Translations under genes and position numbers: made by a program
In this document: piece by piece, positions 13,935-41,688 of the stretch
How positions within the stretch are numbered: the first letter of the stretch is position 1
How the letters are laid out: each line of letters opens with the position of its first letter
Virus record (IMG/VR): IMGVR_UViG_3300048591_000242
Location: 128,001 to 192,000 of that record
Length of the DNA stretch: 64,000 nt
Source: a virus
Lineage: Duplodnaviria; Caudoviricetes
Strand: one strand, 5' to 3'
The notes under the pieces: generated by a model
What the model saw: only the letters and a program-made list of their open reading frames with translations
The model's database searches: none
Told to the model about the DNA's origin: nothing

Positions 13935-15161
13935 ATGAGTAAAAACATCCGCGTACTGGATCACGATGAACATTTTAGAAGTTTAAATTTTCCACCGATT
14001 ATTCTAAACGATATACCGGCCAGAACTAAGGAGGAGAGAGAAGCACTAAATAACATCATAATGACCACGTACGACAACACAGATACTTTAGAGTCAGTAC
14101 CTAGCTGTGCGTGTGGGGCTCTGTCGTATGGGCATAACTTAGGGGCCATGTGTAGTAGCTGTGGTACCAGAGTAGAAACCCCTACAGACAGAAAAATAGA
14201 GGCTACCGTATGGATACGTTCTCCAGAAGGTATAGTTTCTTTAGTAAACCCAGTATTGTGGTTGGTGTTAGGGAAGATCTTAACAAAATCACACTACAAC
14301 GTTCTGTATTGGTTTTGTAACCCATATGCTGAAGATCCCCCACATAACAACAAGGCTGCTATTCAGTTAATACGCAGATTTTTAAACTCTGGCATACCTC
14401 GAGGATTAAATTCCTTTATAGTGAACTTCGATCAGTTAGTACCTATCTTTCTGGCCGCAGTACCACTAGCTTCTAACCGACCACATCTGGAATCTTTTAT
14501 TTCAGAAAATAAAGACAAGTTCTTTCCACAGCACCTACCAGTACCGTCTAAGGTAGCGTTTGTTCTGGAGAAAACTAGTACTGGCTCTTATGCCGATATT
14601 AACATAAGAGACCCTATTAACGCATGTCTTACTGTAACTTCACTGGACTCTGGTACCTTAAGTAACGTTAAGAGACTAGAAAGCAGAATGTCTTCTGTTA
14701 TCAATGATTTATCGAACTATTACAAACATATGTTTGGTGATCCGTTCTCAGCTAAGGCCGGTCTTCTTAGAAAGACTGTATTTGGCAGTAGGATGGGTTA
14801 TAGTTTTCGATGCGTTATAACCAGTGCTCACGGGGTACACGACTATGAGCAAATAAAGATACCTTATTCTCAAGCGGTAACTCTACTTAAGGCACACCTT
14901 CTAAACAAGCTACACAAGTTGGAGTATAACGAGAGAGATGCTAAGGCTTATATAGCCCAGCATACCAAGGAGAGAGATCCTCTGCTTCTTAGGCTCTTAT
15001 ATGAGCTTATAGCAGAAGCACCAGGGGGTAAAGGTATACGTTGTCTCTGGATTCGGTACCCTACTTTAACGAGGGGCAGTATACAGTCGCTTCATATCTC
15101 GGATATCTCCGAGATGTCAGCTAGTCTTAGTATATTGGCCCTAAACGGCGCTACGGCTGAT
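13935..15161 (+). CDS. non-virion RNA polymerase beta-prime N-terminal subunit, exon 1 (phiKZ gp55-like)
   Basis: Zinc finger CACG...CSSCGT; LLRKTVFGSR..SFRCVIT; RYPTL; ends SILALNGATAD before the intron. Confidence 0.88.
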
Positions 15162-16673
15162 GAAGCGGCTTAACTAACGATACTTGAACAATTGTGTTTG
15201 CTAATGTACATTAATGCTCTATGTGTTCTTTAAATTAAATAAATATCATGGTGAGGATAAATGTATGTTAGTTGAAATTAAAGGTTTTCCTGGGTTCTAT
15301 AGGGCTGTTGGTACAACAAACCTGGCCGTAAATAAAAATGGAATCATTCTAGATTTAGTTACCCGTAAATACAAACTCACCGACGTTGCATCGGATGGGT
15401 ACATCACCACAAATGATGGCGGAGTAACTAGGAACGTTCATCGCATTATGGGTGATACATTCCTAAAACGTCCTAGCGGGAAGGGGACGTACATAATCAA
15501 CCATAAGGACGGAGATAAAACTAATCCTAGGTTAGATAATTTAGAATGGGTTACATATAGCGGTAACATAGAACATGCCTACGCTAATGGTCTAAGAACA
15601 GACAACACTCCGGTTGAAGTTTATAACTTGAAAACGGATGAAATTATAAAATTTATTAGTATACAGCAGTGTGCTAAGTATTTTAAACGTAACCATAACG
15701 CTATAGTTAAGTATCTTAAAAGCAAGCGTAATGCACCGTTTATGTTGTCGTACAGCATTAGAAAGGTAGGGGAAGGTTGGCCACCTCTTACCAAGAATGA
15801 TATTGGTAAAGTGGTAAATGGGGCACCCGTTAGCATAATAGCGGTTAATGTAAGTACCGGTGAAAAAATAATTTTCAGTGGTGCTAAAGCGGCGTCAGAA
15901 TATCTGGGTCTAAAGAAATCTGGAATAGGTGGTAACTTACGTGGCACACATGGCGATAAGCCGTACCACGGTTATAGATTTTACCATCTTAACACCTATA
16001 ATCTTGAGTCTACAGATAACGCAATTGATGTGCGTGATCCTCAATCAACTAAATCTAAAGGAAAACCACCTAGACAAAAGCCCAAAATGGTTAGTGCATT
16101 TAATCATGATACCGGTATTGAGGATGTGTTTAACTCCATGCGCGTATTTGCTGAGTCTGTAGGGACAACCTATGATGCAATAGCTAGATCGGTATGGAAA
16201 AACGCTGGTAGGTGGAAAAACTACACAATCAAGTATATAGGTTAAGCCGATAGTCCTCTAGGCTAGTAATGGTCTAGTAGTTTCTCTCTAATTGCTGGAA
16301 CCCACTAAAGATTCACCCACTACAACGTAACTGGAAACGGTAAGCGTGAAGGTATCGAAAGATAGAAAAAAGTGGTGAGTATGGAATATGACGATAGTAA
16401 GTCTAAGTTCTATAGACAATGTGGGAATCAGCAGCGAAGTTCCTAAGCTACTCTACCTTGGTAGAGGTGTATGGAATGTGCTCAACGATCAACCGGTAGC
16501 TCGGTGTAGGGTGGCAAGCGATGTAACAATCAGGCCATTCGAAATGGGAGGGGGCCTTTCATGTTTGTGTGAAAGGTTCATGATATGATCTAATATCCAT
16601 CTGTAATGGATGGGAAGTTCGCTACTTCGGTAGTGAGAACTGTATGGGTGTCGCGGCCCATATGAATGCAATG
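15162..16673 (+). mobile_element. group I intron (IA2-like) in the RNAP catalytic DxDGD motif
   Basis: P/Q elements aattgctggaa (16290) and aatcagcag (16426); P7 gctcaacgatca (16480) pairing with gatatgatct (16582); exon ends in U and intron ends in AAUG; splicing restores TADYDGD. Confidence 0.88.
15265..16245 (+). CDS. intron-encoded HNH homing endonuclease (I-HmuI-like) with NUMOD1-type C-terminal repeats
   Basis: VHRIMGDTF...INHKDGDKTNPRLDNLEWVTYSGNIEHA; three F.S...A...L repeats; GAGG RBS before ATG 15265. Confidence 0.92.
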   Translation: MLVEIKGFPGFYRAVGTTNLAVNKNGIILDLVTRKYKLTDVASDGYITTNDGGVTRNVHRIMGDTFLKRPSGKGTYIINHKDGDKTNPRLDNLEWVTYSGNIEHAYANGLRTDNTPVEVYNLKTDEIIKFISIQQCAKYFKRNHNAIVKYLKSKRNAPFMLSYSIRKVGEGWPPLTKNDIGKVVNGAPVSIIAVNVSTGEKIIFSGAKAASEYLGLKKSGIGGNLRGTHGDKPYHGYRFYHLNTYNLESTDNAIDVRDPQSTKSKGKPPRQKPKMVSAFNHDTGIEDVFNSMRVFAESVGTTYDAIARSVWKNAGRWKNYTIKYIG

Positions 16674-16883
16674 TACGATGGTGATGTTCTCAGTGGCTGT
16701 ATAGCCCTTAGTAGGAAGCAATATGATGACTTTGAGTACTTCAGACCACACTACGGTATTCATTCCTTTGTTAAGTTAGGTGAGCTAAATGGAAACTGCA
16801 GTTTACCAGAAACCGACATCGGTGTGATTAACTCGTGGTTTGAGTATGAAGAAGATGAGTTAGGTATTGTAGCTGAACGATAG
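16674..16883 (+). CDS. nvRNAP beta-prime N-terminal subunit, exon 2
   Basis: Begins YDGDVLSG, completing the catalytic motif; spliced product about 478 aa. Confidence 0.85.
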   Translation, partial: YDGDVLSGCIALSRKQYDDFEYFRPHYGIHSFVKLGELNGNCSLPETDIGVINSWFEYEEDELGIVAER

Positions 16884-16902
16884 TTGTAGACAGGGGGAGC
16901 CA

Positions 16903-17340
16903 ATGGCTCCCCTTTTATTTTTGTGCTGTTTGGAGGAAAGGTTTATGGTTATTCAAAATGTGCCAGTAGGTTGGGTATTGGTAGCGGAAGGTAGTGAGGT
17001 ACCGACGGTACATAGGGAAGGACATGTACAGGATGATGGTAGTGTGGTGTGGGCAGATATTCAATATGAGCACACCGATGCTACGCCTGAATGGGTAGGT
17101 CAACAGGAGGGCGTATATATACTTACAACACTAGGGCATTTATTTAACATATATGTTAATAAAGGCGGCTATCGAATATTTCCAGACGGTACCGTGTTTA
17201 TAACCAAACATAATAGGCCGTCTGGGGACATGTATCGTAGTTTTAGACGAGACAAGGTTGGCAGTTTAATATGTAAAGAAACTGGGGATTACTTATTTAA
17301 GTATGAGGAACACAAACCATGCAGTTATGTGGAGTTTTAG
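16903..17340 (+). CDS. hypothetical protein (start possibly ATG 16945)
   Basis: ORF with phage-like codon usage. Confidence 0.65.
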   Translation: MAPLLFLCCLEERFMVIQNVPVGWVLVAEGSEVPTVHREGHVQDDGSVVWADIQYEHTDATPEWVGQQEGVYILTTLGHLFNIYVNKGGYRIFPDGTVFITKHNRPSGDMYRSFRRDKVGSLICKETGDYLFKYEEHKPCSYVEF

Positions 17341-17798
17341 TAGTAGATATCGCTAATGGCTTTTGTTATATATTTGAGTCTAGCGAATCTGCTTCAAGAT
17401 ACCTTATAGGGGAGAACATATTACATATAGAACCCAGTACGGTGGAAAATCTAATACGGGGTACAAATGGTAATCTGTATAAGGGACTCTTCTTTATACT
17501 AATAAACGATTATGCATATAGTCTATCCATAGCTAGAAACGTACACATGCATGCTAGGACTATGCGTATAGAAGCTATGGATACTAACTCTGGTATTATA
17601 ACTGAATATGTAAACTCCATTATGTTTGCTATGGTTACTAGAGTAAATTTATCTAGTTTGAAGCTTTTGTTTACAGGGCATGAGAAACTGGTATATGTAG
17701 GGAGTTGGGTAGTGCGTTTAAAGGATACACCAGTAGACTGGCCTACGGAGGAGGAGATTAATGATTATTTTAATTACATAACCGGCAAGGTATTGTAA
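17319..17798 (+). CDS. NUMOD1-like tandem DNA-binding protein without a nuclease domain
   Basis: YIFESSESASRYL and the IEAMDTNSGIITEY...WVVRLKDTPVDWP segment parallel the C-terminal repeats of the intron HNH protein. Confidence 0.5.
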   Translation: MQLCGVLVVDIANGFCYIFESSESASRYLIGENILHIEPSTVENLIRGTNGNLYKGLFFILINDYAYSLSIARNVHMHARTMRIEAMDTNSGIITEYVNSIMFAMVTRVNLSSLKLLFTGHEKLVYVGSWVVRLKDTPVDWPTEEEINDYFNYITGKVL

Positions 17799-17868
17799 TA
17801 TAACTGCGCATGGGTATATGTTGGAGTACTTTCTGTGCCCTATATAAGGCTCAGCACAATACCAGATA

Positions 17869-17895
17869 TATATTACGGTATAGACACACAACCAC
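17869..17895 (+). promoter_or_regulatory. TATATTAC-N12-CAACCAC element
   Basis: Exact bipartite match, one of four. Confidence 0.7.
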
Positions 17896-17931
17896 AAAAA
17901 GCATGGGAAAAGCCCATGGGAGGATAATAAG

Positions 17932-18549
17932 ATAGCTACCTTTTATGGGTCACCAGAAGAAGCGGCTGCCGCACTATACAGTGGTCCCAGTAACGCAGCC
18001 ATGCAGTACGTAAATCAAACTGTAGATAGATTTGTAGGCTACGCGCAGGCTATGCCCGGTAGTATAGCTAACGTAGTACGGCAGAAACACCAGGAGCTTT
18101 TGTCCAGTAGCACTAGTCGTAAAGTAGAGGCTATACGTCACAAAATAAACAACATGTGGCAGGATAATACTGTACGGGTAATGTGGAGTGTAGGGGCAGC
18201 TCAACAGGCACCAGACGCTATGGTACGTTGGATGATGGCTAATCCTAGAATACGTTCCTTGTATCATGACGGTAGGGTAGAAGGCTATGGCGATAGGTAC
18301 AATGATATTCAGCCTAACTGTGTAGGGGAAGAACAGTATGATTATCGCAGGGTAATGGACGGGATGATTGTTAATACTGAAACAGGAAGCCATTATACTA
18401 CCTATCACGAAGAAATAATACCGGATGACGTTGTATTAAATACTTTAGAGAAAATGAGTATTAGATTATCCTGGGACATCGTTAATAAGGAAATAGAAGA
18501 TGGGAATATGGATGATCCGACGTCAGAATGGAACGCACTGATTGGTTAG
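17932..18549 (+). CDS. conserved core protein (phiKZ gp59-like position), probable ATA start
   Basis: Open frame extends upstream of ATG 18001; GGAGG at 17919-17923 lies 8 nt before ATA 17932. Confidence 0.65.
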   Translation: MATFYGSPEEAAAALYSGPSNAAMQYVNQTVDRFVGYAQAMPGSIANVVRQKHQELLSSSTSRKVEAIRHKINNMWQDNTVRVMWSVGAAQQAPDAMVRWMMANPRIRSLYHDGRVEGYGDRYNDIQPNCVGEEQYDYRRVMDGMIVNTETGSHYTTYHEEIIPDDVVLNTLEKMSIRLSWDIVNKEIEDGNMDDPTSEWNALIG

Positions 18550-18618
18550 TAAATTCAAAATAACAAAAGGGCAAAATTTTGCCCTTTATTTTTTATCAAA
18601 AATACAAGGAGAACAGTC

Positions 18619-19023
18619 GTGTCTAAGACGTTACCTATGTTAGGTGGAGAGGGTTGGCTGACTGATCCTGAACTCATTATGAGTAGAATATACATGCATG
18701 TATTTCTAACGGATCACTCACAGAGTAATATTTACCAGGGCAACATTATCAGCATCCAGTATATTCTATCAAACTCCGGTGATGATCCGGTGGATATTTC
18801 CTCAAACATACAAGCTGGACTGAAGGCTATTTACTCCAAGTACTATGAAAACGTAGACGTAAGTTTTGAACAGTTACCTTCAGATTCATACGGTTTATCT
18901 GAAGCTATAATGGTATTCGGGCTGTCTGTAAAGGGCGAGTTAGATGGGGTTATCTATACGCTGGATAAGGTTTTACAGACAGATAAATCTAGTAGTGTTA
19001 GAAAATTTAAAGAATTAGGATAA
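18619..19023 (+). CDS. conserved core hypothetical protein
   Basis: GTG start after GGAG; LP.LG..GW and SQS..Y.G.I.S motifs typical of phiKZ-like core genes (recall). Confidence 0.7.
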   Translation: MSKTLPMLGGEGWLTDPELIMSRIYMHVFLTDHSQSNIYQGNIISIQYILSNSGDDPVDISSNIQAGLKAIYSKYYENVDVSFEQLPSDSYGLSEAIMVFGLSVKGELDGVIYTLDKVLQTDKSSSVRKFKELG

Positions 19024-19032
19024 GGTGAATTT

Positions 19033-19500
19033 ATGTCAATGGAAAGCCTAAAGGCGCAACTTGGTAATCTACCGAAGATTTCTCAATCTGAATTTAGAAA
19101 ATTCTTACCGATTCTAATAGATCCTAAGGCAGATATAACCCTTAAGAGAAAGTGGTTAGATATCTGCATAGATCCAAGATTATCAGTTATCGTGGTAGAC
19201 GATAGTACTGGGGAAGAAGTACATAGGGTACCGCCACTTATTTATACCACTCAGGAGCTTACTGGTAGAAACATATCTGGTACATTAGATGTCATTGGTA
19301 GAATGGCTGATGCTAATCCTTTATTGGGTAGAAAGTATGCCAGAGAAAACCTTACTCCTGAGGTGGTTATTGGTAAGCCACCTGAAGAAGATGTTCAGCT
19401 ATGGAGAGAAATATTAGTCAGGTATGATATCACTAAAGAGGAGGATGCTGAGGCCTCTAATGTAGTAGCTGGTTTATCGGATGACCCAGGTGCCTGGTAA
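19033..19500 (+). CDS. conserved core hypothetical protein
   Basis: V.VVDD.TGE.V..VPPL; acidic tail ending in W; synteny. Confidence 0.7.
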   Translation: MSMESLKAQLGNLPKISQSEFRKFLPILIDPKADITLKRKWLDICIDPRLSVIVVDDSTGEEVHRVPPLIYTTQELTGRNISGTLDVIGRMADANPLLGRKYARENLTPEVVIGKPPEEDVQLWREILVRYDITKEEDAEASNVVAGLSDDPGAW

Positions 19501-19518
19501 CTTAACGGAGTAACTGCT

Positions 19519-20655
19519 GTGGGTATTAAACAGAAACCGTATGTTTTAAATCTAGCCTTTATCTCAGATATACATCTAGGTAATCCTAGAGTACCTACGC
19601 ATGACATTATATCTAGGCTAGAAAAGGCATTTCCCTCTAATGCAAAAACAGGGGAATTAGATATACTTTTTATAGGGGGAGATTTATTTGATCAAATATT
19701 GAATCTTCCTGAGAATCAAGTAACTGAGATTCACCTATGGATGTATAGGCTTCTAGGCATATGTAAAAAATGGGATATAAAGCTTAGAGTACTGGAAGGT
19801 ACGCCATCTCACGATAGAGGACAAAGTGCGTTATTTGATACAGTAAACACCGTTAGTAAAATAGGTGCTGACTGCAAGTATATAGACAGACTATCCATAG
19901 AGCACATGGACGATCTGGATTTGGATATTCTCTATATACCAGATGAATGGCGACATGATCCGGATGATACCTGGAGCGATGTACAGGAGGCACTGAATAA
20001 AGCAGGCATTGATAAAGTAGATTATTCCATAATGCACGGGGTATTTGAACATCAGCTCCCTGCCCATCTTAGAATACCCACACACATCGGTTCTAGGTAT
20101 TTAGGCATTACAAGGAAGTATATCTCCATAGGCCATCATCACACCATGGTGGTGAGGGATAGGATCATAGCACAAGGCTCTTTCGATAGGCTAAGGCATG
20201 GGGAAGAAGAGGCTAAAGGTTTCTTTAAAGTAACCTCTAGGGATAGAGTAAAGTGCGATAATGATACTTTGCTATTTGTAGAGAATAAGGAAGCAGCTAC
20301 CTTTAAAACCATTAACTTAGTGGGTATGGACGAGGACACTATAAAAAACAGGCTGAATGAAGTTTGCTTATATAGGCAGGGTTCGCACATTCGTGTAGTT
20401 ATAGATAAATTCTCACCTAGTATGGGTCTGGTACAAAGCTATATTAAAGCTAAAGTGGAATTTAAGTGGTCTACTGTAGCAGAAGGAGAGACAGGTAGCA
20501 AGGAGATAAAACCAGTGGAATTTGATAAAACCAAAATAGCTGTAGATATAGGTAAAAGAGATATCACGCAAGTACTAGAGACTCGTCTACGTACTAAGGG
20601 GCACTCTGATAAATTTATATCTAAGGCACTGTCTTTGTTGGAGGCTATTAAATGA
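19519..20655 (+). CDS. sbcD: SbcD/Mre11-like metallophosphoesterase nuclease
   Basis: SDIHLG, GGDLFD, GTPSHD, MHG and GHHH motifs. Confidence 0.9.
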   Translation: MGIKQKPYVLNLAFISDIHLGNPRVPTHDIISRLEKAFPSNAKTGELDILFIGGDLFDQILNLPENQVTEIHLWMYRLLGICKKWDIKLRVLEGTPSHDRGQSALFDTVNTVSKIGADCKYIDRLSIEHMDDLDLDILYIPDEWRHDPDDTWSDVQEALNKAGIDKVDYSIMHGVFEHQLPAHLRIPTHIGSRYLGITRKYISIGHHHTMVVRDRIIAQGSFDRLRHGEEEAKGFFKVTSRDRVKCDNDTLLFVENKEAATFKTINLVGMDEDTIKNRLNEVCLYRQGSHIRVVIDKFSPSMGLVQSYIKAKVEFKWSTVAEGETGSKEIKPVEFDKTKIAVDIGKRDITQVLETRLRTKGHSDKFISKALSLLEAIK

Positions 20656-21443
20656 TTACTCGAGAATTAGGCGAGAAGGTGGCTGTCAGCATAGGCACTG
20701 CCATACCGATAGAGGAGCAGCTACTAAAGGAAAGTTTACCTATTAGTCATTTGTGGGTTAACCTTAGTACCATCTTTAGAAACTTATACGAAGCGTATGA
20801 TGATCCACAGATGATACCCAGGGGCAACCTTATAGGTGAGTTTATTGAGGAGTTGGAGAATATAGCTGGTTTGTTAAGTGGGATAGTGGAAGTGGTCTTC
20901 TATTCTACGGATTCTAGTTACCTACAACAGAAGTTCCCGCACGCTAATGTAAAGGTACCTACTACACCCAAACAGAAGTTATACGCCAACATGGAGCGTT
21001 TGGCTATAGCCGCTGCCACTAACAAGAAAACAGTACCTATAATTAAATGCAAATTAAAAATACCCGGTGATAATACTAGAGCATGGATACTAACCCATCA
21101 TCCTTTAGATTTAATCTCCAGGTATGAGTTTTCCGAATTGACATTACTTAGTAGCCACACCGGATCACTTAAGAAACCGGTAGAGTGGATAGCTAAGCTT
21201 ACTGCTAATCCGGAATATTTAAACATGCCGTTTAACCTACTTACTATACAGGTAGTAGGTGATAGGGCCACACAGTTTAAAGCCGGTAGCGCTATCTTTA
21301 GAAAGATGTTACTTAATGTAGCTAAGGGTGCTAACTGGAAACCAACTACTACCAGATCTAAAGTTAACCACGACTTGGATAAAATAATCGTCCCAGATGT
21401 AAGGGATATCTTTAAGAAAATGTTAAACGTAAAATTAACATAA
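20652..21443 (+). CDS. conserved core protein (phiKZ gp66-like position), possibly 5'-nuclease fold
   Basis: G...VSIGT, WVNL.T.FRN, LTHHP.DL and L.SHTG; overlaps sbcD. Confidence 0.55.
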   Translation: MITRELGEKVAVSIGTAIPIEEQLLKESLPISHLWVNLSTIFRNLYEAYDDPQMIPRGNLIGEFIEELENIAGLLSGIVEVVFYSTDSSYLQQKFPHANVKVPTTPKQKLYANMERLAIAAATNKKTVPIIKCKLKIPGDNTRAWILTHHPLDLISRYEFSELTLLSSHTGSLKKPVEWIAKLTANPEYLNMPFNLLTIQVVGDRATQFKAGSAIFRKMLLNVAKGANWKPTTTRSKVNHDLDKIIVPDVRDIFKKMLNVKLT

Positions 21444-21462
21444 TTGTGCTAGGAGAATATAC

Positions 21463-22242
21463 ATGACTACATTTAAAGCTATACCCAAGAAAAACGTAAC
21501 GGATGACCCTAAGTTAGCTCTGTTTGGGGAACCTTGGAGAGAAGGGGATTACAGTAAGAAACCTAGTATGAAGTTGAGAGTAATCAACTCTACGGGTAAT
21601 CCAAAATCGGAAGTAAAACAAAGCACAGTCGGTGTTTGGATTACCGTATATTTAAATCATCCAGATGAAAATGATGATGCAAAGAAAATTGACATCAAAA
21701 TGGATGCGGTCATATCGTCTACATTTATAGCTGCTATAGAGCGAGCTATAAAGAACCGAGAAGCCACTATGTTGGGTATAGATAACATGGGGTATACCTT
21801 TGTAGGGGGCAACAAGTCAGATAAGCCCACTAGCCTGGGTAAGGTATTTGTGGGTAGAAACGGTGAGGGAGTATTGTGTCTGGTGGTAGATGCACCCAAT
21901 AGACCAAGGGCTTTATTTCCGTTTACACCTACCTTTTGGTGGGCCCTTATTAATAAGAACGGGGATAAAATATCTGCCGTAGAGGCCTCTGAGTTGGTAG
22001 CAGAAGGCTGGGTAGCCATAGTGCGTCCTTTACTAGCTATGGCTGTAAAGGAAACCTACGACGACAAAGAAGCTGCACACAGAAAAGCTGAATTGGAGGC
22101 AAATCGTAACTCACAAGGCAATAGCGGTGGTTACAGCAAGCCGTATGAGAAGAAGAGCTACGATGACAAAAAGAGCTATGAAAAGAAACCGTATAACAAC
22201 CCAAAGCCAACCACCACAGATGTCTTTGATAGCATTCATTAA
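21463..22242 (+). CDS. chmC: ChmC-like nucleus-associated nucleic-acid-binding protein (phiKZ gp67-like position)
   Basis: Synteny upstream of the gp68/PicA homologs; about 260 aa with a low-complexity K/Y/S/N tail. Confidence 0.6.
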   Translation: MTTFKAIPKKNVTDDPKLALFGEPWREGDYSKKPSMKLRVINSTGNPKSEVKQSTVGVWITVYLNHPDENDDAKKIDIKMDAVISSTFIAAIERAIKNREATMLGIDNMGYTFVGGNKSDKPTSLGKVFVGRNGEGVLCLVVDAPNRPRALFPFTPTFWWALINKNGDKISAVEASELVAEGWVAIVRPLLAMAVKETYDDKEAAHRKAELEANRNSQGNSGGYSKPYEKKSYDDKKSYEKKPYNNPKPTTTDVFDSIH

Positions 22243-22250
22243 TTAACTAT

Positions 22251-22289
22251 TTTAGGTAAAGGGCTTAGGCTCTTTACCTAAAGTATGCC
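22251..22289 (+). terminator. hairpin plus TATGCC motif
   Basis: tttaggtaaagggc-ttag-gctctttacctaaa, then tatgcc. Confidence 0.7.
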
Positions 22290-22303
22290 TGGAGTACTGT
22301 AAA

Positions 22304-22852: not shown

Positions 22853-22864
22853 TGAGGTTTTACT

Positions 22865-32830: not shown

Positions 32831-32833
32831 TGG

Positions 32834-33294: not shown

Positions 33295-33401
33295 TTAAGG
33301 CTAGATTTAAGTGACTAGAGAGAGGATAAAACCTCTCTCTAGCTATGCTCTATTTTTTGAATGTAAGTTATGATATGGATTCTATTTTTAGGAGAAGTAT
33401 C

Positions 33402-33767
33402 ATGAAACCGCATAACTGGATGATGGTTAATTGGAAACCTATGTATGCGTTAATCTATTCTATAGTCTGTCTTGCTGATTTTGTAGTCTTTCCAGCCTGG
33501 GTAGGCATACATCGAGTTAACTATTTTGAACTTTTAGAGGCAGTTAGTAAGTTTGATCCTAAGGTACAAGCGGAGCTTATACACGTCGCTATGAAGAGTT
33601 GGGAGCCATTTACGTTAAAAGGTACCGGTCTATTTCATCTAGCTTCCGGGGCACTATTAACAGGCGCTGCCATTACTAAAGGACCAGACAGTAATGCGGT
33701 CTTTACTGACAAAGGTCTTAAGTTTGCACGTAGAAAAGAAGATAGAGTAAAGGTAAGTGTAGAGTAA
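33402..33767 (+). CDS. holin-like membrane protein (GTA 3TM holin family-like)
   Basis: WKPMYALIYSIVCLADFVVFP...WEPFTLKGTGLFHLASGALL resembles WRP...DF..FP...W.PLTL.G.GLFH. Confidence 0.6.
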   Translation: MKPHNWMMVNWKPMYALIYSIVCLADFVVFPAWVGIHRVNYFELLEAVSKFDPKVQAELIHVAMKSWEPFTLKGTGLFHLASGALLTGAAITKGPDSNAVFTDKGLKFARRKEDRVKVSVE

Positions 33768-33840
33768 ACGTTCTAGGGTATGGGTTTAGGCCTGTACTCT
33801 AAACGCTATGCTGTAGTTTAAATATTAATCAGGGTAGAGA

Positions 33841-36315
33841 ATGGTATACGGCCCATATATAAAGGCCCTATGCCATTTAGCGTTCGCAGACATCCAAGGA
33901 GTTCCCATGGTACGTTATAAGTTCTCGGTATTTTCACATGGATTTACCGTTAGTCTTTTCTATGTAAACGACAAGCAGGCTATCCTTGAGTTTAGTAAAG
34001 ACCTAGCTACATTTGAAGAAATGTGGGTACCCAAGCTACGTAGAAAAATAAGAAAGGTAAAGTCTGTGTTTGCAGCAGCTAGTATGGATAGAATGGAATA
34101 TAGTTTTCTTATAGCTGACTTTGTACCTTTAATAAAATTCTTAAAGGAAAGAGGCTATACCGATGCGGATATGTCTATATATAAACATAACGCCTCAGAG
34201 GGTATGCCTATTGAGATTGAATTGGGGGATGGAGTGGCTCCTAAAGATCAAGAACAAAGAGACGTAGTTGAGTTTATCAATAGTCCAGACAAAACCAATA
34301 TTGTTTTAAATCTAAGAACAGGTGGAGGTAAAGCACAACCTTTAGCTTCTAAGATTAAGATACCGGGTGGTTGGAGTACTATGGGTGAGATGGAAGTAGG
34401 TAAAATTATAACTGCTCCAGACGGTACCCCCACTAAGGTAACCGGTGTACACCCTCAGGGGTTAAAGGGTTGTTATAAATTAACTTTTAGCGACGGTAGA
34501 AGTTGTGAGGCTGACGGGGAACATTTATGGCGAGTATATGTGAAGGGAGAAGAACTTACTATAGATACCGCTGAAGTACATGGCTTGGTAGGTACAGGTA
34601 ACGTACTGACCATACCGCTACCTACATCTGAGCACATATCGGAAGTAGAGTTACCCATGGACCCATATGAGCTAGGAATTGGTTTAGGAGCTATGGATAA
34701 TAACCATAAACTACCTACTGGTATAGTGGATTTAGAGGGATATACTCAGCTAAATGGATTAGCTTATGGCGAATATATCCCTAAACTATATCTACATGCT
34801 TCTACCACACAAAGACTAAATTTAGTACGTGGATTAATGGATGCTTGTGGTCACACTGTAACGGACGGCTCTGTTTACTTTACCTCCAATACCTATACCC
34901 TGGCAAAGAACCTTCAATATTTAGTTAGATCACTAGGAGGTTGTGCTAGCTTAACCACCAATACCACCAACAGGTTTGTAAGAGGGGCTATAAATAGAAC
35001 TAGCTCGAGCTATAGGGTCTATGTAGAGTACCCTATTGTCACTGAGTTATATAGTTGTAATAGAAAGAAAACCAACTGTATGTCTAGAGGCAAATACTTA
35101 AATAAGGTAGAGTGTCGTATAGTGAATGTAGAATACATAGGTAGAAAGGAAACTCAGTGTATCTCTGTAGATCACCCAGACAAGCTTTACATTACTGATG
35201 ACTTTATAGTAACGCATAACACGTTTTTGGGATTAAACTCCATAGCTAACTTTAAAGTACGCACGGCATTGATAATGAATGCCGGGCACTTTAAGACATG
35301 GCAGGATTCCATGTCGTGGGTATACAAGGACGAAAAAAACTACTGTATAGTTAGGGGTAGAGATAATCTTAAACGGCTTATAGAGCTATCTATAGCTGGA
35401 GAAAATGAGTATAAGCTTATCTATATCTCCATAGCTACGCTTAGAAAGTATATTACTGACTATCTAGCCACAGGGGAGACTATAGAGGGGGTACATCCTA
35501 GAGAGTTATTTAGTGTATTAGGGGTAGGTTATCGCATAGTAGATGAGGCACATCAATCTATACATGCGATAGCCATACAAAACATTTTTACTCACGTAAA
35601 CAAAACACTTTACTTATCTGCTACTTTAGTAACGGAAGATCCGTTTCTACAGAAACAGTATAAGAAAATGTTTCCTTTAGAAGATCAGTTTAAGAAAGGA
35701 GTAACTAACAAACACGCTCGAGGTATTAGTATTACCTATAGGGTAAAGGATAGGGATAAGATTCGCTGTACAGGGGGTAAAGGCTATAGTCATGTTGTTT
35801 ATGAACATTGGATTATGTCAAATAAACAAAGACTTAGTAATTACATAGAGATGATAGAAAGTATTTTAACTGAATCATTCATAAGTGTAAGGGAAGGGAA
35901 ACAAAAGGCACTTATCTTCTGCAGCACCACTGAGTTATGTAAGATAGTGGCAGATCAGCTAAGAATAAGTTATGGTGATAGATTTACCATATCAGATTAC
36001 GTAGCCAGTCACGATCCGTCTGTACTACACGACAACGATATAGTGGTATCTACACCACTATCGGCAGGTACTGGTGTAGATATAGAAGACCTAAGAGTAG
36101 CCATATCTACTGTAGCCGTAAGATCCATTCAGCTTAACCAGCAGATGGCCGGGCGATTACGTCCGCTACGTAATCATCCAAATGTAACACCGGATTACAT
36201 CTGGCTAAACTGTGGAGATATACCACAGCACTTGCAGTATAACTCAGCTAAGATGGAGCAGTTAGGAAACCATACCAAAGAGATTAAGTATACCTTTTAT
36301 AACACTGAAATATAA
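33841..36315 (+). CDS. superfamily 2 (UvsW/DEAD-like) helicase, phiKZ gp75-like, containing an intein
   Basis: RTGGGK|T Walker A split by the intein; IVDEAH; LSAT; AGTGVDI; QQMAGRLR. Confidence 0.92.
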   Translation: MVYGPYIKALCHLAFADIQGVPMVRYKFSVFSHGFTVSLFYVNDKQAILEFSKDLATFEEMWVPKLRRKIRKVKSVFAAASMDRMEYSFLIADFVPLIKFLKERGYTDADMSIYKHNASEGMPIEIELGDGVAPKDQEQRDVVEFINSPDKTNIVLNLRTGGGKAQPLASKIKIPGGWSTMGEMEVGKIITAPDGTPTKVTGVHPQGLKGCYKLTFSDGRSCEADGEHLWRVYVKGEELTIDTAEVHGLVGTGNVLTIPLPTSEHISEVELPMDPYELGIGLGAMDNNHKLPTGIVDLEGYTQLNGLAYGEYIPKLYLHASTTQRLNLVRGLMDACGHTVTDGSVYFTSNTYTLAKNLQYLVRSLGGCASLTTNTTNRFVRGAINRTSSSYRVYVEYPIVTELYSCNRKKTNCMSRGKYLNKVECRIVNVEYIGRKETQCISVDHPDKLYITDDFIVTHNTFLGLNSIANFKVRTALIMNAGHFKTWQDSMSWVYKDEKNYCIVRGRDNLKRLIELSIAGENEYKLIYISIATLRKYITDYLATGETIEGVHPRELFSVLGVGYRIVDEAHQSIHAIAIQNIFTHVNKTLYLSATLVTEDPFLQKQYKKMFPLEDQFKKGVTNKHARGISITYRVKDRDKIRCTGGKGYSHVVYEHWIMSNKQRLSNYIEMIESILTESFISVREGKQKALIFCSTTELCKIVADQLRISYGDRFTISDYVASHDPSVLHDNDIVVSTPLSAGTGVDIEDLRVAISTVAVRSIQLNQQMAGRLRPLRNHPNVTPDYIWLNCGDIPQHLQYNSAKMEQLGNHTKEIKYTFYNTEI
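34333..35220 (+). mobile_element. 296-aa intein, class-3 type, with LAGLIDADG-like endonuclease remnant
   Basis: Starts AQPLASK, ends IVTHN before +1 Thr; WCT triad (EHLW, QCIS, VTHN); VRGLMDACG and LAKNLQYLVRSLG. Confidence 0.9.
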
Positions 36316-36319
36316 ACCC

Positions 36320-36355
36320 AGGACTAGGGGATATCCTCTAGTCCTTTTATGCTGT
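36320..36355 (+). terminator. hairpin plus TATGCTGT motif
   Basis: aggactagggg-atat-cctctagtcct, tttt, then tatgctgt. Confidence 0.75.
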
Positions 36356-36372
36356 ATATTGGAGAATTAATT

Positions 36373-37041
36373 ATGATATCAATTTGTTTTAATAATAAGA
36401 TGGTGGCTACAGACTCATTGCACCCAAAAACACCTATAGGGGGTAAAAACTATGGCGCCATATTTACCACGAAATGTGGAAAATTAAACGGCAACAAAAT
36501 AATTGCTGTTGCATGCTGTGGAAATATCGTATTAGCTGGCCAGCTACTATACTCATATTTAGGTGACGTAACGCTGTATAATACACCTGGAAATGAAGAG
36601 GATTTTTCTGTGTGGATCAGTAGAACCTATAAAAGGCTGTTAGGATTTGTCGATAACAGCGAAGTTGTAGTTTTCAGTAAGGGTACAGAAGGTACAGTTA
36701 TACATACTTTTGGCATAAGTAGAAACGGTATATCTACGATTAAGGAAATACCTATGACTGAAGATGATATTGGTGTCTTAGACACATGTATTTATACCTC
36801 TGACGATCTAGACGAATATTGCGATAGTAAAGCCAACGTCAAATTACCAACCAACCCACTGGATAGGATGTGGGTTTATTCTAAATACCACCAGGGTCGT
36901 AATCCTACTATCACATATCTAGAATTTGATACTATGGAACTTAAAACATACTCACCCACACCCGCCATTAAAAGGAAATTAACTAAACTTGCAAAAGATA
37001 CCCTTGAGTTTAGATTAGCTATAATAGAAAATAGAATTTAA
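36373..37041 (+). CDS. hypothetical protein, possibly a degenerate HslV/proteasome-beta (Ntn) fold
   Basis: MISICFNNKMVATDS and IAVACCGN resemble TTI.......AADS and G.AG; no N-terminal Thr. Confidence 0.4.
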   Translation: MISICFNNKMVATDSLHPKTPIGGKNYGAIFTTKCGKLNGNKIIAVACCGNIVLAGQLLYSYLGDVTLYNTPGNEEDFSVWISRTYKRLLGFVDNSEVVVFSKGTEGTVIHTFGISRNGISTIKEIPMTEDDIGVLDTCIYTSDDLDEYCDSKANVKLPTNPLDRMWVYSKYHQGRNPTITYLEFDTMELKTYSPTPAIKRKLTKLAKDTLEFRLAIIENRI

Positions 37042-37197
37042 TCATGTATTGTATTATATGTAAGTTGCCGTGTCTTAAATGCTTTATCGAGTATTTCTAG
37101 CAAACGAGACAATAGCACATAACCCGTTCTATGGCTAGCTTTAGTGCTAGCCATAGACACCCTTTATACCGCTTTTTTATTTTTGGGGAATGCTGTA

Positions 37198-38220
37198 ATG
37201 TATACAGAAATCGTAGCAGAAGAATTAGAATTAGATGCAGCATTGGACTGTTGCTTGGTAAAGTCTAGACTGGTTATGGGGCTAGAGGATATATTTGAAA
37301 GTTTACCTACAGACTGTGACATGGGTAAAACGGTATTGGCTGTGGCGGCAACAAACACTGGCAATACACCCACATATAGTGCAGAAGGTATTTCCGATTT
37401 CCTCGCACAACTGTGGGAGGGGATTAAGAATGTAATGTCTAAGATCTGGGAAAACATTAAGAAATTCGGGGCATGGCTACGTGCTGGCGTGTTAAGATTG
37501 TTTGGTATGTCCAAAAGTATAAAAGAAGAGGCGGATGGTAAACTTGACTTGGTAGGTCAGATAAAAGCGGAACAGTTACAATTTCTTAAAGGGATGGCTG
37601 CTTATGACGATGGTATACGCAATGCAATGAATTTAAGTGAGGGTAGAGTGGGTGCCATTATAGATGCTGTTGATGAATTCAGTAAGAAAGAAATACCTAC
37701 TACAGAAGAAACTATGGCCAATGCCAGGGCTTTTTTGGATGCTAAAAGAGCAGCAAAGGATGCTAAAGCTATTACCGATAAACTGGCCATGGGGGAAATA
37801 GAAGTGACATCCACTAAAGATCCAGAATCTGGGGAAGAGACACTGGTTGGGTTTAATTATGTACCTAACAAACCAGCCAAGGACAGCGATAAGGTTACTA
37901 AAATAACCGGTAAGGATATTTCTAAAATGGCTGGAGAAATATCTAAGACAGAAAGTAAGGTCTTAGATATGACTAAACGATTAACGGACACCAAATGGGC
38001 CGAGGATGCCATTAAGAAAATGGACTCAATGATACGTAGACTGGGTAGTGCGCCGGAAGGTAAAGTAAAACGCTACGTCGCCAGAAAATCCAGAGAACTA
38101 TCTAGGGCCATCCAAACAGAAATAAAGCTCAATAAAATAATAGCCGATGACCTAAAAAAGACACTGGATGCATCCATTAGTGGTTTGGATGGGGCTCTTA
38201 AGTCACTCAGCAACAAATAA
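37198..38220 (+). CDS. virion internal head protein, paralog A
   Basis: Acidic propeptide with LE/SAE cleavage motifs (GLE, YSAEG); W..IK..MSKIW..IKKF. Confidence 0.65.
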   Translation: MYTEIVAEELELDAALDCCLVKSRLVMGLEDIFESLPTDCDMGKTVLAVAATNTGNTPTYSAEGISDFLAQLWEGIKNVMSKIWENIKKFGAWLRAGVLRLFGMSKSIKEEADGKLDLVGQIKAEQLQFLKGMAAYDDGIRNAMNLSEGRVGAIIDAVDEFSKKEIPTTEETMANARAFLDAKRAAKDAKAITDKLAMGEIEVTSTKDPESGEETLVGFNYVPNKPAKDSDKVTKITGKDISKMAGEISKTESKVLDMTKRLTDTKWAEDAIKKMDSMIRRLGSAPEGKVKRYVARKSRELSRAIQTEIKLNKIIADDLKKTLDASISGLDGALKSLSNK

Positions 38221-38251
38221 TAGCCACCAGTAAACTTTGAGGAATGCCGTA

Positions 38252-39256
38252 ATGTATACAGAAGAATTAGAATTAGATGCAGCATTGGATGACTGCATCG
38301 CCAAGGCCAATTTAACTATCGGCCTGGAGAGTGTATTTCCAGATTTACCAGAAAATAGTAAGCTAGGTAGAAAGGTTTTAGAGGTAGCTTCCATGCATAC
38401 CGGCATTACACCTACATATAGTGCTGAGGGTATAGGTGACTTTTTAATTAATGTCTGGGAAGGCATTAAAAATGTAATGTCTAAGATCTGGGAGAGTATT
38501 AAGAAGTTTGCTAAATGGGTAAAAGAGTCCATTGGCAATATGTTTGGCAAAATTGACGATAAAAGAATTGATTCAATAGCCGACAGCGATGTAGTTGTTG
38601 AAGTAGAAGAAGCTGCTGAGTTACCAGATCTTGCTAAACTTAAAAAAATGAATGAAGACGTTCTCTATGAAGGTGACGTTGAAAAGCAAATTGATGCTTT
38701 AGAGAAGGTAGATGAAGATCTTACCGATGACGTAGCTGAAGTAATAGAGGCCGGTACCGCTGAAGTAGATAAAGGTAAGGTAAAAGATCTTAATGAATTC
38801 TTTACTAATAACCAGGTAGTAATTGAATCTACTATTGACCCGCACAGTGGTAAAGAAACCAGAAATGCGGTTACTGTTGTGCCGTTAAACAGAAAAACCA
38901 ATACGGTTAAAATTAAACGTATGAGTGGTAAGGATTTGGCCAAGATGGCTAAGGACACCAAGTCGCTACAAAAGGATGTAGAAGACGCAGTGGAAAATCT
39001 TACCGACACTAAATGGGGTGAAAAGCGTTTAGCCGATTTGGATAAAATCATTAAACGCATCAGTAAGGCGGGTACCTTAAAAGCTAAGAGTGTAGTAAAG
39101 AAACAGGCTATTACTCTTAGCGGTGTAGTGCGGGATAACCTTAAGGTAAAAAGAGCTATGGCTCGTGACCTATTAGAGTCATTAGAGGCCCGTATTAAAA
39201 TAATTGATGGCGCCATTAAGGCTATGGAAGCTGCTGAAAAAGCCGATAAAGAGTAA
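38252..39256 (+). CDS. virion internal head protein, paralog B
   Basis: Near-identical N-terminus to paralog A at both DNA and protein level. Confidence 0.65.
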   Translation: MYTEELELDAALDDCIAKANLTIGLESVFPDLPENSKLGRKVLEVASMHTGITPTYSAEGIGDFLINVWEGIKNVMSKIWESIKKFAKWVKESIGNMFGKIDDKRIDSIADSDVVVEVEEAAELPDLAKLKKMNEDVLYEGDVEKQIDALEKVDEDLTDDVAEVIEAGTAEVDKGKVKDLNEFFTNNQVVIESTIDPHSGKETRNAVTVVPLNRKTNTVKIKRMSGKDLAKMAKDTKSLQKDVEDAVENLTDTKWGEKRLADLDKIIKRISKAGTLKAKSVVKKQAITLSGVVRDNLKVKRAMARDLLESLEARIKIIDGAIKAMEAAEKADKE

Positions 39257-39262: not shown

Positions 39263-39751
39263 ATGAAATATATTCCGATTTTTGATGATACTACGGTAGG
39301 TTCTGTATTTGCTGAGCTTTTGGCCTGTCAGAGTGAAGGGGAGACTGAGGCTACTTTAATCTTCAGTGCCCCTGATATGGGTATGTATATAGGTTTGGCC
39401 TTTAGAGACCTTTTATATACCTTTAAGGACACTCTTGCGCTTACGGCGGTAGCCCACATACCCCCTAACCTAAATGAGCTTGTAGCGATTACAGGGTTGC
39501 CTGTAGAGCAGAGAAAGATTACTAAGTCAAATCTAGTAATCTTTGTAAAAGAAACCTGGTTTATCGAAGGCTCTGTTTCTGAGCAGTACATTACTCATTC
39601 AGAAAAGCTTTTAGTAGAAAATAAAATTGTAAAACTAATAAGCGAGTCTTCTAAGCTTACCGAAGAAAACATAAACAACCTAATTAAAGACGGTAAGGTT
39701 GTTCATGCTAAGGATGCTATAGAGGCAGGGTTATTTGGGAGTACTGTATAA
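39263..39751 (+). CDS. degenerate ClpP-like protein lacking the catalytic triad
   Basis: LIFSAP..GMYIGLAFRDLL and ISESSKLTEENI...HAKDAIEAGLFG align with the ClpP scaffold; no Ser/His/Asp motifs. Confidence 0.6.
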   Translation: MKYIPIFDDTTVGSVFAELLACQSEGETEATLIFSAPDMGMYIGLAFRDLLYTFKDTLALTAVAHIPPNLNELVAITGLPVEQRKITKSNLVIFVKETWFIEGSVSEQYITHSEKLLVENKIVKLISESSKLTEENINNLIKDGKVVHAKDAIEAGLFGSTV

Positions 39752-40248
39752 TGGCTACTAAAAGAATACTTTACATTACCGATGACATAGCTTTAGAAAA
39801 CGGCTATGAGGTAATTATAGGTTTGCGTAAGCTAGAGGCAGAAGACCCTATCTCCCCTATAGTTTTGTTTATAAATTCATACGGTGGCAGAGTAGACGTA
39901 TGTCTGGCTATAGTAGACGTTATGAACGATCTGTCGTGTCCTGTATATACCGTGGGATACGGTCAGGTTATGTCAGCAGGTGCCTTTATTTTAGCAAACG
40001 GCTCTAAAGGTAATAGAAGCTTAGCCCCTAATGCCAGAGTACTACTACATCACCCTAACGGCAATAACGTACTGGGAGATACAGACACCGGCATGGCTGT
40101 ATTCTTAGCCTATCGTGATATGGTAGATGTATTAATAGCAGAAGCTTCTGAAAGAAGTATAGAAGAGGTATCTTCTAAGATGTCTACTGACTATTATTTA
40201 TCTGCTACAGAAGCTGTAGAATTTGGTATAGTAGATACTGTTTTATAG
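39751..40248 (+). CDS. clpP: ClpP protease proteolytic subunit
   Basis: INSYGG, VMSAGAF (Ser), LLHHP (His), TDYYLSATEAVEFGIVD (Asp). Confidence 0.93.
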   Translation: MATKRILYITDDIALENGYEVIIGLRKLEAEDPISPIVLFINSYGGRVDVCLAIVDVMNDLSCPVYTVGYGQVMSAGAFILANGSKGNRSLAPNARVLLHHPNGNNVLGDTDTGMAVFLAYRDMVDVLIAEASERSIEEVSSKMSTDYYLSATEAVEFGIVDTVL

Positions 40249-40256
40249 CGTATTAG

Positions 40257-40284
40257 GTATAGTCCTCCATATAGAGGACTATAC
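40257..40284 (+). terminator. stem-loop after clpP
   Basis: gtatagtcctc-catata-gaggactatac plus T run. Confidence 0.8.
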
Positions 40285-40317
40285 TTTTTATGATGTTGTT
40301 TAGGTATTAGTAAAATA

Positions 40318-40449: not shown

Positions 40450-40839
40450 ATGTCAGTAGATGAAGCTTTTATGTTAAAAATAAAACCTTTACTTAAAAAC
40501 AGAGACGCTCTTTTAGAGATACAACAGTCTATAGATTTAGAGAAGCGAGAAGTAAAACGCTATCTAGATATAGAGACTAGAAAGAACAAGCACCCAGATA
40601 GAGACAGAAACTTGTCTATTCTAAAGGACGACTTAGTTTCTCTAGTAGAAAAAGGAAACTATGTTAGGGAAAAGCTACGTATACTGAAAAAGGAAAGGAC
40701 TACTTTAAACAAAGCTAAAACTCGCGCTCTTAGATTTAATGATGCTTTTGTAGCAGCGGCTGAGCTTTTATTAGATGAGGAGCTATTTCTAGAGTTAGAA
40801 GCTAAGGCAGGTACATTGCTTTCTATAAACGAAAACTAA
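40450..40839 (+). CDS. hypothetical coiled-coil basic protein
   Basis: 129-aa ORF. Confidence 0.7.
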   Translation: MSVDEAFMLKIKPLLKNRDALLEIQQSIDLEKREVKRYLDIETRKNKHPDRDRNLSILKDDLVSLVEKGNYVREKLRILKKERTTLNKAKTRALRFNDAFVAAAELLLDEELFLELEAKAGTLLSINEN

Positions 40840-40967
40840 TAGGCACTATACACTCTAGGTTGTCCTAGAGTGTATAGCCTTATGCTTCTATTCAATTTTT
40901 TTTTCAAATATATATCACCCTTATAGATAAAACTTAAACTTTACGTAGAGGTATAACCTCAAAAGGA

Positions 40968-41324
40968 ATGTTTTCTATGATAGATAAAGTATTGAAAAAG
41001 GTCTTAGTACAAATAGGTAATCTTTCAGATAAAGAAGGAGTTAGTCTTACCGAAGGTATACTGATATATCCAGTAATGGGTATATTAGAATGCTGGGTAG
41101 TAGTATACCCAGAAGGACTATGCCATGCGGTTTATAAAGACGGCTACTACGTAGCTACACTTACGATACCCAAGCAGATGATGGGTAGTTGGGATACTTT
41201 ATTAAAGATAGAGCCTTCTGCTGAGCTAGCTATTCTAATGGAAGCCCTTAATGTGTTAGAGGTAGGGATTACTAATGAAGCCATCTTAAATGAACAGATT
41301 AACAAACTAATGAATAAGGAATAA
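40968..41324 (+). CDS. hypothetical protein, paralog of the next gene
   Basis: Shared L.EGIL....YP.GLC....DG.Y..TL motif. Confidence 0.75.
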   Translation: MFSMIDKVLKKVLVQIGNLSDKEGVSLTEGILIYPVMGILECWVVVYPEGLCHAVYKDGYYVATLTIPKQMMGSWDTLLKIEPSAELAILMEALNVLEVGITNEAILNEQINKLMNKE

Positions 41325-41328
41325 GAAA

Positions 41329-41688
41329 ATGGAAACTAAGTTATCTAAACTAAAAGTAATACTGGAAATAGGGGCTACAGGTGAACCCATAGGTGCTATG
41401 CTATCTGAGGGTATACTGGTACGTAAGGTAGAGACAGAGCAAGACACATACATAGCTGCTTATCCAGACGGACTATGTAAGGTAGTCCTACAGGAAGACG
41501 GTCACTACAAAAGTACCCTAGTACTGTCTAAGCCTTTCTCATTCTGCTGGAATACGCATTTCGGTGTAACAGTAGCAGAAGTAGAAAACGATATGGCTGA
41601 CGTACGGTATCTATATACCGGTATAATCTTTAAGTCTGAGATAGGAGACAGACTACGAGAATTAATGGAGTCTAAATATGCAGCATAA
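41329..41688 (+). CDS. hypothetical protein, paralog of the previous gene
   Basis: Shared motif; ends KYAA. Confidence 0.75.
   Translation: METKLSKLKVILEIGATGEPIGAMLSEGILVRKVETEQDTYIAAYPDGLCKVVLQEDGHYKSTLVLSKPFSFCWNTHFGVTVAEVENDMADVRYLYTGIIFKSEIGDRLRELMESKYAA

Follow-up and report, generated by a model that had tools for sequence, protein, structure and literature searches.

A 64,000-nt stretch of viral DNA (the window; bases 128001–192000 of the 202,179-bp IMG/VR virus record IMGVR_UViG_3300048591_000242, which has direct terminal repeats) encodes two tandem proteins with the predicted fold of the adaptor SspB and, at a separate locus, an active-type ClpP preceded by a ClpP-fold paralogue in which the catalytic triad is replaced. 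We propose from these genes that at least two, and perhaps three, independent accessory modules related to proteolysis were acquired by the phage of origin, an uncultivated jumbo phage of the phiKZ-like type. In our best joint reading, which we hold to be about as apt to prove right as wrong, the SspB-like proteins would serve as adaptors for host ClpX, the live and dead ClpP subunits would form a mixed, gateless ring acting independently of any unfoldase, and the Ala-Ala C-termini found on some phage proteins would be coincidental. An earlier, sequence-only reading of the same DNA had instead proposed that the adaptors, the protease pair, a possible pseudo-HslV and the Ala-Ala endings converge into a single Clp proteolysis circuit; as that circuit is not supported, it is the individual parts, not a new system, that make the locus valuable. 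Nucleus-forming phages make all of their proteins in the host cytoplasm, beside the host proteases. To our knowledge, the control of protein turnover in these phages has been little studied, and SspB-like adaptors and ClpP of jumbo phages have been noted but never tested.

The SspB-like genes are found at 22304–22852 (paralogue 1; 182 aa, C-terminus ...NVVSIFNK) and 22865–23422 (paralogue 2; 185 aa, GTG start, tail carrying NVVSIFDK), on the + strand, as are the hairpin ahead of the first gene and the proteasome-like, internal head protein, ClpP and small-protein genes and the beta-prime exon described below, and their products are 38 % identical. Sequence comparison detects the relationship to SspB only faintly. 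For paralogue 2 the sole Pfam match was SspB (PF04386; E 0.057, 13.9 bits vs a curated cut-off of 27) and the sole match among PDB sequences was the SspB entry 1yfn (E 1.5), whilst for paralogue 1 no Pfam SspB match was found; in a genome-wide profile search the SspB match reached only 12 bits. In the ESM Atlas, however, the clusters nearest to paralogue 1 carry PF04386, and its best structural neighbour is SspB. A phmmer search over 1.84 billion representatives returned the query, its paralogue and one 188-aa protein, and no others, and tblastn of the SspB-like protein against isolated phages returned nothing.

Because a profile built from these three sequences matched no PDB sequence at E ≤ 10, the fold was established via structure prediction. 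The AlphaFold2 model of paralogue 2, generated from the three-sequence input, has a core of residues 12–136 with predicted local distance difference test (pLDDT) values of 70–83, followed by a tail (residues 137–185) that is predicted to be disordered (pLDDT below 50). When this model was submitted to Foldseek, all of the top 13 matches were SspB (E 2e-5 to 6e-4). Similarly, VIA-align placed all four SspB representatives at the top of its ranking: E. coli SspB with a Z-score of 11.5 (root-mean-square deviation 2.5 Å over 104 of 105 residues), H. influenzae SspB with 11.3, and alpha-proteobacterial SspBs with 6.2 and 5.9, the first unrelated chain following at 3.7. We regard the SspB fold of the paralogues as settled at the level of predicted structure, and in this respect the two SspB-like adaptors of the sequence-only reading were borne out.

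The likeness to bacterial SspB (E. coli and H. influenzae; PDB 8et3, 1ou9 and 1ox8; PF04386) extends across nearly the whole substrate-binding domain, and includes the arrangement of a folded domain, a long disordered tail and a short conserved peptide. The phage proteins differ from it in being just 14–18 % identical, far under the Pfam threshold, in carrying an insertion after the first helix, and in having NVVS(I/L) in the tail rather than L-R-V-V-K. NVVS is invariant across all three members of the family, which are 24–38 % identical to each other, and is the sole conserved element of a tail that cannot otherwise be aligned. By analogy, this is how an adaptor that carries a tethering peptide is laid out. 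In two of the three members the NVVS(I/L) peptide is not at the extreme C-terminus; as the XB peptide is functional wherever it is located in a polypeptide (PMC12373786), this internal position would be immaterial. In the mechanism we propose for this first module, the SspB-fold proteins would dimerize and bind cargo, as SspB and gp39 of Erwinia phage RAY suggest by analogy, the NVVS(I/L) tail would tether that cargo to the N-terminal zinc domain of host ClpX, and the cargo would then be fed to host ClpXP.

The closest phage precedent is this gp39, described by Prichard et al. as a cytoplasmic SspB-like ClpXP adaptor of the nucleus-forming phage RAY (PMC10299810). Its location coincides with that of host ClpXP. 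It too is an accessory SspB-fold gene in a chimallivirus, but it scores 29.3 bits, above the SspB threshold, and ends in the host-like TLTVVK. The window proteins represent a separate and far more divergent lineage (hhalign E 0.003); moreover, their genes are duplicated and occupy a different genome position, and RAY has no ClpP. That gp39 retains the canonical L-x-V-V-K tail whereas the window proteins do not is one reason to consider that the latter instead bind an unrelated partner or block the host system, for instance through titration of the ClpX zinc domains or through the masking of proteins that bear a tag. Their similarity to SspB below the family threshold and the extremely small size of the family would also fit such a role. 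We nevertheless consider it rather unlikely, as the architecture, with its folded domain, long disordered linker and conserved short terminal peptide, is that of an adaptor, and for inhibition either the tail or the domain would suffice by itself. A very divergent lineage of duplicated SspB-like genes, in which the tail peptide is new, could reveal a different mode of ClpX docking or a new partner.

With regard to genomic context, the SspB-like genes constitute an insertion between homologues of phiKZ gp67 and gp68, and the corresponding slot in phiKZ and in the cultured Vibrio phage vB_pir03 holds only a short spacer. Directly 5′ of the first gene, reading of the sequence revealed a hairpin and then TATGCC (22251–22289), a putative junction of a terminator and a TATG-type promoter whose arrangement is seen again at 36320–36351 and 40255–40292 (see below). 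The gene 3′ of the pair is preceded by TATATTAC, which we take to resemble the phiKZ early promoter. Furthermore, the first SspB-like gene (22291–22306) and clpP (39738–39753) have ribosome-binding regions of the form GGAGTACTGTA[A/T]AATG that match at 15 of 16 nt, with the 11-mer GGAGTACTGTA occurring at exactly these two sites in the 202-kb genome. No such match was seen between the SspB-like and ClpP genes of the uncultivated relative L005 (introduced below); as it was not reproduced there and could be a coincidence, we did not count it as evidence for co-regulation.

The second module comprises two adjacent genes, of which the downstream one (39751–40248; 165 aa) specifies an N-terminally truncated ClpP of the active type. 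It matches PF00574 at 135 bits (E 3e-39) and, starting at chain residue ∼26, aligns with bacterial ClpP structures at ∼34 % identity. In all three phage orthologues the Ser, His and Asp of the triad correspond to S97, H122 and D171 of E. coli ClpP. The intact Ser-His-Asp triad and the ∼34 % identity are thus shared with cellular ClpP (E. coli and H. pylori; PDB 1tyf and 2zl0; MEROPS S14), from which the phage subunit differs in having no axial gating loops, no helix A and few of the residues of the IGF/IGL pocket.

The upstream gene (39263–39751; 162 aa) encodes a dead, 'ClpR-like' paralogue of the ClpP fold. It matches PF00574 weakly (18–21 bits) but over the full length of the model, and the scores of the three dead-ClpP orthologues against this family were 19.6, 23.2 and 16.6 bits. 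Its Atlas model matches proteins of the ClpP fold with a template modelling (TM) score of 0.87, and CLP_protease accounted for 97 of 100 feature hits. By alignment, the catalytic triad is replaced in all three close orthologues, Ser by Asn, His by Val and Asp by Gly. A search of isolated phages by tblastn with this protein gave a single match at E 0.4. Direct comparison of the dead and live subunits was uninformative (hhalign of the two profiles, E 0.006 and probability 6 %; BLASTP meaningless), and as such their homology rests on Pfam and the Atlas. The ClpP and pseudo-ClpP pair anticipated by the sequence-only reading is therefore real, one member retaining the triad and the other having it replaced.

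The stop codon of the dead gene overlaps the start codon of clpP (TAATG), an arrangement by which the two are judged to be translationally coupled. Between phages, the dead subunit is 39–47 % identical and the live subunit 42 %. Since the dead subunit is conserved like the live one, it is likely to be under selection as a non-catalytic partner. Mixed rings of this kind, ClpP/ClpR and ClpP1/ClpP2, occur in cyanobacteria, plastids and actinobacteria. The window pair resembles them in combining an active subunit with a conserved triad-less paralogue, from genes that are here adjacent and translationally coupled; it differs in that both subunits are truncated and in that the dead subunit is not detectably nearer to ClpR than to any ClpP, so that loss of the triad was probably independent. 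By analogy with ClpP/ClpR complexes, we infer that the live and dead subunits would co-assemble into mixed rings.

A more specific proposal for the function of such rings comes from the N-termini. All eight phage ClpP-fold proteins examined (from the window, L005, a second uncultivated relative, L007, and vB_pir03) begin at approximately residue 23–26 of mature E. coli ClpP. The live ClpP of the window begins at approximately mature residue 23 and has an in-frame stop upstream of its start. As a result, the axial gate (residues 1–18) and helix A are absent from all of these proteins. In cellular ClpP the axial-gate residues are opened by docking of the IGF/IGL loops of the ATPase, for which the pocket is formed by L23, L48, F49, A52, Y60, Y62, F82, I90, M92, F112, L114 and L189 (bioRxiv 10.1101/820209). 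In an alignment of the live phage ClpPs, most pocket residues are replaced: F82 by D/S/K, F112 by S/M, F49 by K/A/S, L114 by A/S, Y60 by V and L48 by R/D/L. This comparison is of pairwise-level quality, at ∼33 % identity, and A52 was left unmapped. With both the gate and the pocket residues lost, canonical docking of the phage ClpP on host ClpX or ClpA appears unlikely from the alignment, and the pore would be ungated.

The absence of the gate and helix A, together with the poorly conserved ATPase-docking pocket, leads us to favour an open ring that would act as an unfoldase-independent peptidase late in infection, which we consider likelier than a partner of host ClpX. If the pair does work without an unfoldase, it would be a natural 'always open' ClpP, comparable to the effect that acyldepsipeptide antibiotics bring about artificially. 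Alternatively, such truncated subunits could be incorporated into the rings of host ClpP, where they would poison or re-tune ClpXP and ClpAP and thereby protect phage proteins from proteolysis by the host. The dead subunit being as conserved as the live one, and both being devoid of docking elements, would fit; however, this is pure speculation, poisoning would not need an active triad, and we consider it extremely improbable.

The best clue to the function of the ClpP pair is its neighbourhood. Upstream of it lie two paralogous genes for phiKZ-type internal head proteins (37144–38220 and 38237–39256), the first with a weak match to PF12699 (phiKZ_IP) and homology to the internal head proteins of L005 and L007. 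The order of genes is two internal head proteins, dead and live ClpP in the window; one internal head protein, dead and live in L007; and dead, live and one internal head protein in L005. This recurrent adjacency points to late expression together with head components. A hairpin scan of the + strand found strong hairpins, each followed by TATG, at 36320–36345, 40255–40286, 40846–40877 and 41694–41719. The first of these is terminator-like, lies after the helicase gene, is followed by TTTATG and marks the start of a unit; the second, also terminator-like, closes it. As no strong hairpin was found between 36345 and 40255, the proteasome-like gene described below, the two internal head protein genes and the dead and live ClpP genes can be read as one unit. 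TATG occurs repeatedly within a few bases of hairpins (36345–36351, 40286–40292, 40877–40886 and 22282–22289, the last being that ahead of the SspB-like genes), and the combination suggests terminator–promoter junctions of one promoter class.

In our reading of the second module, the open ring would act together with, or on, the head-internal proteins. A stronger version of this idea is that the pair is itself a head-associated protease, packaged with the internal head proteins or clearing propeptide fragments that head maturation releases, and independent of the host Clp ATPases. In three phages, each with its own gene order, the pair does adjoin phiKZ_IP genes, and here it shares a hairpin-bounded unit with them; furthermore, the dead paralogue is structurally nearest, in the Atlas, to phage ClpP-like prohead proteases, and the live subunit matches 'head maturation protease' families in PHROG (E 8e-16). 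That match is nevertheless weaker than the one to cellular ClpP given above, to which the active subunit is thus nearer, no internal head protein gene is annotated beside the vB_pir03 pair (a point that concerns annotation only), and the phage already has a prohead protease. The latter is a clear homologue of phiKZ gp175, encoded elsewhere in the genome, outside the ClpP locus (E 7e-39), and for this reason we reject the possibility that the ClpP pair is the prohead protease and regard it as accessory. We consider a dedicated head-associated role to be unlikely, if worth keeping in view, and retain the open, accessory peptidase as the preferred interpretation.

For both internal head paralogues, a near-identical N-terminal segment containing ...PTYSAEG... 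was observed, in keeping with the Ser/Ala/Gly-X-Glu cleavage rule of the phiKZ gp175 protease. The true starts of these proteins are probably internal Met codons beginning MYTE....

ClpP itself has been documented in some group 1 (phiKZ-like) jumbo phages by Iyer et al. (2021), who proposed an anti-host role and read phage ClpS adaptors likewise as anti-host tools (PMC7824862). In our literature search, neither a dead ClpP partner, nor the N-terminal truncation, nor adjacency to internal head protein genes was found described for jumbo-phage ClpP, and searches on phage ClpP function, phage ClpR and the vB_pir03 ClpP found nothing relevant. As far as the literature was searched, the new elements are thus the dead partner, the loss of gate and pocket, the link to internal head proteins, and a second, highly divergent lineage of SspB whose tail peptide differs.

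We next consider how these genes are distributed, a coarse comparison that covers five phages or contigs. The window phage has two SspB-like genes, the ClpP pair and, tentatively and from the Atlas only, the proteasome-like gene. The L004/L005 contig has one SspB-like gene, in the same slot, and the pair; the L007 contig has the pair, the SspB slot not being on the contig; in neither is a proteasome-like gene found at the window position. The cultured phage vB_pir03 has the pair and RAY has gp39; Pfam searches of their whole records found no SspB-like gene in the former, no ClpP pair in the latter and no proteasome-like gene in either. Beyond the window phage, the live/dead pair is therefore present in two uncultivated phages and one cultured phage. 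In vB_pir03 (MT811961.1, 15716–16731) it involves the 'hypothetical protein' QNI21073, a divergent ClpP-fold paralogue upstream of the annotated ClpP, in which Thr replaces the catalytic His and Thr is also found at the aligned catalytic-Ser column. The vB_pir03 pair is located after the helicase, as in the window phage. We conclude that the ClpP pair predates the SspB-like insertion and is found more widely, and that the modules are separable, as the pair occurs without SspB in vB_pir03 and SspB without ClpP in RAY. The presence of a conserved live/dead pair without gate or docking surface in a cultured phage also makes it testable.

Turning to the Ala-Ala endings, the two in the window are real. 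The unspliced beta-prime open reading frame (ORF) of the non-virion RNA polymerase ends in ...TADEAA, and the small protein at 41329–41688 ends in ...KYAA. The former arises where a group I intron (15162–16685) interrupts the beta-prime gene: the end of exon 1 is followed by three intron codons, Glu-Ala-Ala-stop (15141–15173), and this three-codon accident is a sufficient explanation for the ...DEAA terminus. The intron core (16233–16611) matches Rfam at E 1.2e-8, below the gathering score, and an HNH/NUMOD1 homing endonuclease is encoded within the intron (15214–16245); the equivalent site in phiKZ holds the HNH gene gp56. The small protein encoded immediately upstream of the ...KYAA protein (40968–41324) is its paralogue and ends in ...LMNKE. 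A crude genome-wide set of 203 ORFs contains three with C-terminal Ala-Ala, compared with 0.9 expected from composition (Poisson P ∼0.06; ∼0.23 without the intron read-through ORF). The third, outside the window at genome positions 2316–2627, encodes 103 aa ending in ...DGTEALAA and could be assigned to neither a Pfam nor a PHROG family; the E. coli ssrA tag ends in the same four residues. With a frequency not significantly above chance, the Ala-Ala C-termini are probably coincidental, contrary to the use made of them as degrons in the sequence-only reading.

The circuit put forward in that reading, in which the SspB-like proteins select Ala-Ala proteins, host ClpX unfolds them and the phage ClpP/ClpR replaces host ClpP, can now be weighed. 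All of its named parts are real except the HslV-like one. A search of the whole genome found no AAA_2, AAA or ClpX zinc-finger match, and likewise no ClpS, tmRNA or tRNA; with no phage-encoded unfoldase, any ATP-dependent degradation would need a host motor, as had been supposed. An SspB-like gene and the pair also occur together in the sole relative with both slots visible, an Ala-Ala ending recurs in an L007 homologue (see below), and the first SspB-like gene and clpP have matching ribosome-binding regions. This match is not seen in L005, however, and Ala-Ala ends are not enriched and are missing from the 40968–41324 paralogue. The main argument against a borrowed unfoldase serving the phage peptidase is that the phage ClpP is devoid of the gate, of helix A and of most pocket residues through which such a motor would engage it. 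The separate occurrence of the pair in vB_pir03 and of SspB in RAY does not support convergence into one circuit. We therefore regard the circuit as clearly improbable.

Several observations nonetheless weigh against our preferred account of independent modules. Binding of the tail peptide to ClpX is a guess made by analogy, and NVVS(I/L) is not the canonical L-x-V-V-K. The pocket result depends on an alignment at ∼33 % identity, which leaves a non-canonical docking mode conceivable. In addition, the SspB-like gene and the ClpP pair co-occur in L004/L005, the sole relative showing both slots, although shared ancestry alone may account for this. Lastly, the sole distant homologue of the 41329–41688 product, encoded in L007 two genes downstream of the ClpP pair, ends in ...GLAA; as the tails of the two proteins do not align, the recurrence of Ala-Ala hints that the ending may matter, a lead from two data points. 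These points could be combined in a hybrid phage–host protease, in which the gateless ring would be engaged non-canonically by host ClpX or by the NVVS(I/L) tails so as to remove selectively phage proteins with Ala-Ala ends, among them the small ...KYAA protein encoded shortly 3′ of the ClpP pair. We hold this to be highly improbable; if true, the virus would itself supply a layer of substrate selection and peptidase activity such as has not been described for any phage.

A possible third module is the gene at the head of the ClpP unit (36349–37041), which the sequence-only reading had named a possible pseudo-HslV. In the ESM Atlas its model (predicted TM score 0.75) aligns to archaeal proteasome subunits with a TM score of 0.60 over 193 residues, and a minority of the clusters among its feature hits carry PF00227, pointing to a possible proteasome/Ntn-hydrolase fold. 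This tentative assignment comes from the Atlas, whilst sequence searches lent it nothing: there was no Pfam Proteasome (PF00227) match at E ≤ 10 and no other Pfam match, no relevant match among PDB sequences, no tblastn match among isolated phages and no homologue among 5.8 billion proteins, and the single-sequence AlphaFold2 model was unusable (pLDDT 40). The first ATG of the ORF forms part of the TATG behind the hairpin and lacks a ribosome-binding site, whereas the ATG at 36373 has GGAG 5–8 nt upstream and is the probable true start. The N-terminus is accordingly MLYIGE... or, likelier, MISICF..., and in neither case is there an N-terminal Thr. Thus, compared with HslV and the proteasome beta subunits (PF00227), the protein shares the structural alignment of its Atlas model but has no sequence signal, no N-terminal Thr and no HslU partner, no HslU-type ATPase being found in the genome. 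The gene is not present between the helicase and the internal head protein/ClpP genes in L005 or L007, and BLAST of the contig stretches examined found no homologue; a 253-aa ORF on L005 and an ORF of the same length on L007 were compared directly with it and proved unrelated. RAY gp116 was also rejected as an HslV-like precedent, as it is annotated as an HslU-type ATPase and is not comparable. We consider the product a sequence orphan and a possible pseudo-HslV, with a putative proteasome fold that would probably be non-catalytic.

The identity of the phage as an uncultivated, phiKZ-like and nucleus-forming jumbo phage of ∼202 kb is assigned from its sequence. This placement is based on the split RNA polymerase beta and beta-prime genes, the gp175-type protease, the phiKZ-type internal head proteins encoded in the window, the 637-aa product of 11947–13860, which is colinear with the phiKZ nuclear shell protein and encoded at the equivalent position (pairwise E 3e-4), and a gene order in the window that is that of phiKZ gp66 to gp75. 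The nearest cultured relatives are the Vibrio phages vB_pir03 and C-ZP2022, whose RNA polymerase beta subunits are no more than 37 % identical to that of the window phage. No close relative was found in the isolated-phage collection or in IMG/VR: megablast of 15141–35000 against isolated phages gave nothing beyond one 66-nt match, and scans of IMG/VR with the SspB-like protein and ClpP as queries gave no relatives.

Finally, the gp75-type helicase gene located 5′ of the ClpP unit (33841–36315) encodes 824 aa, compared with 537 aa in phiKZ. It shows a weak LAGLIDADG match as well as matches to the intein regions of terminases, and an intein is probable; the 859-aa helicase homologue of L005 has the same intein-type signals.

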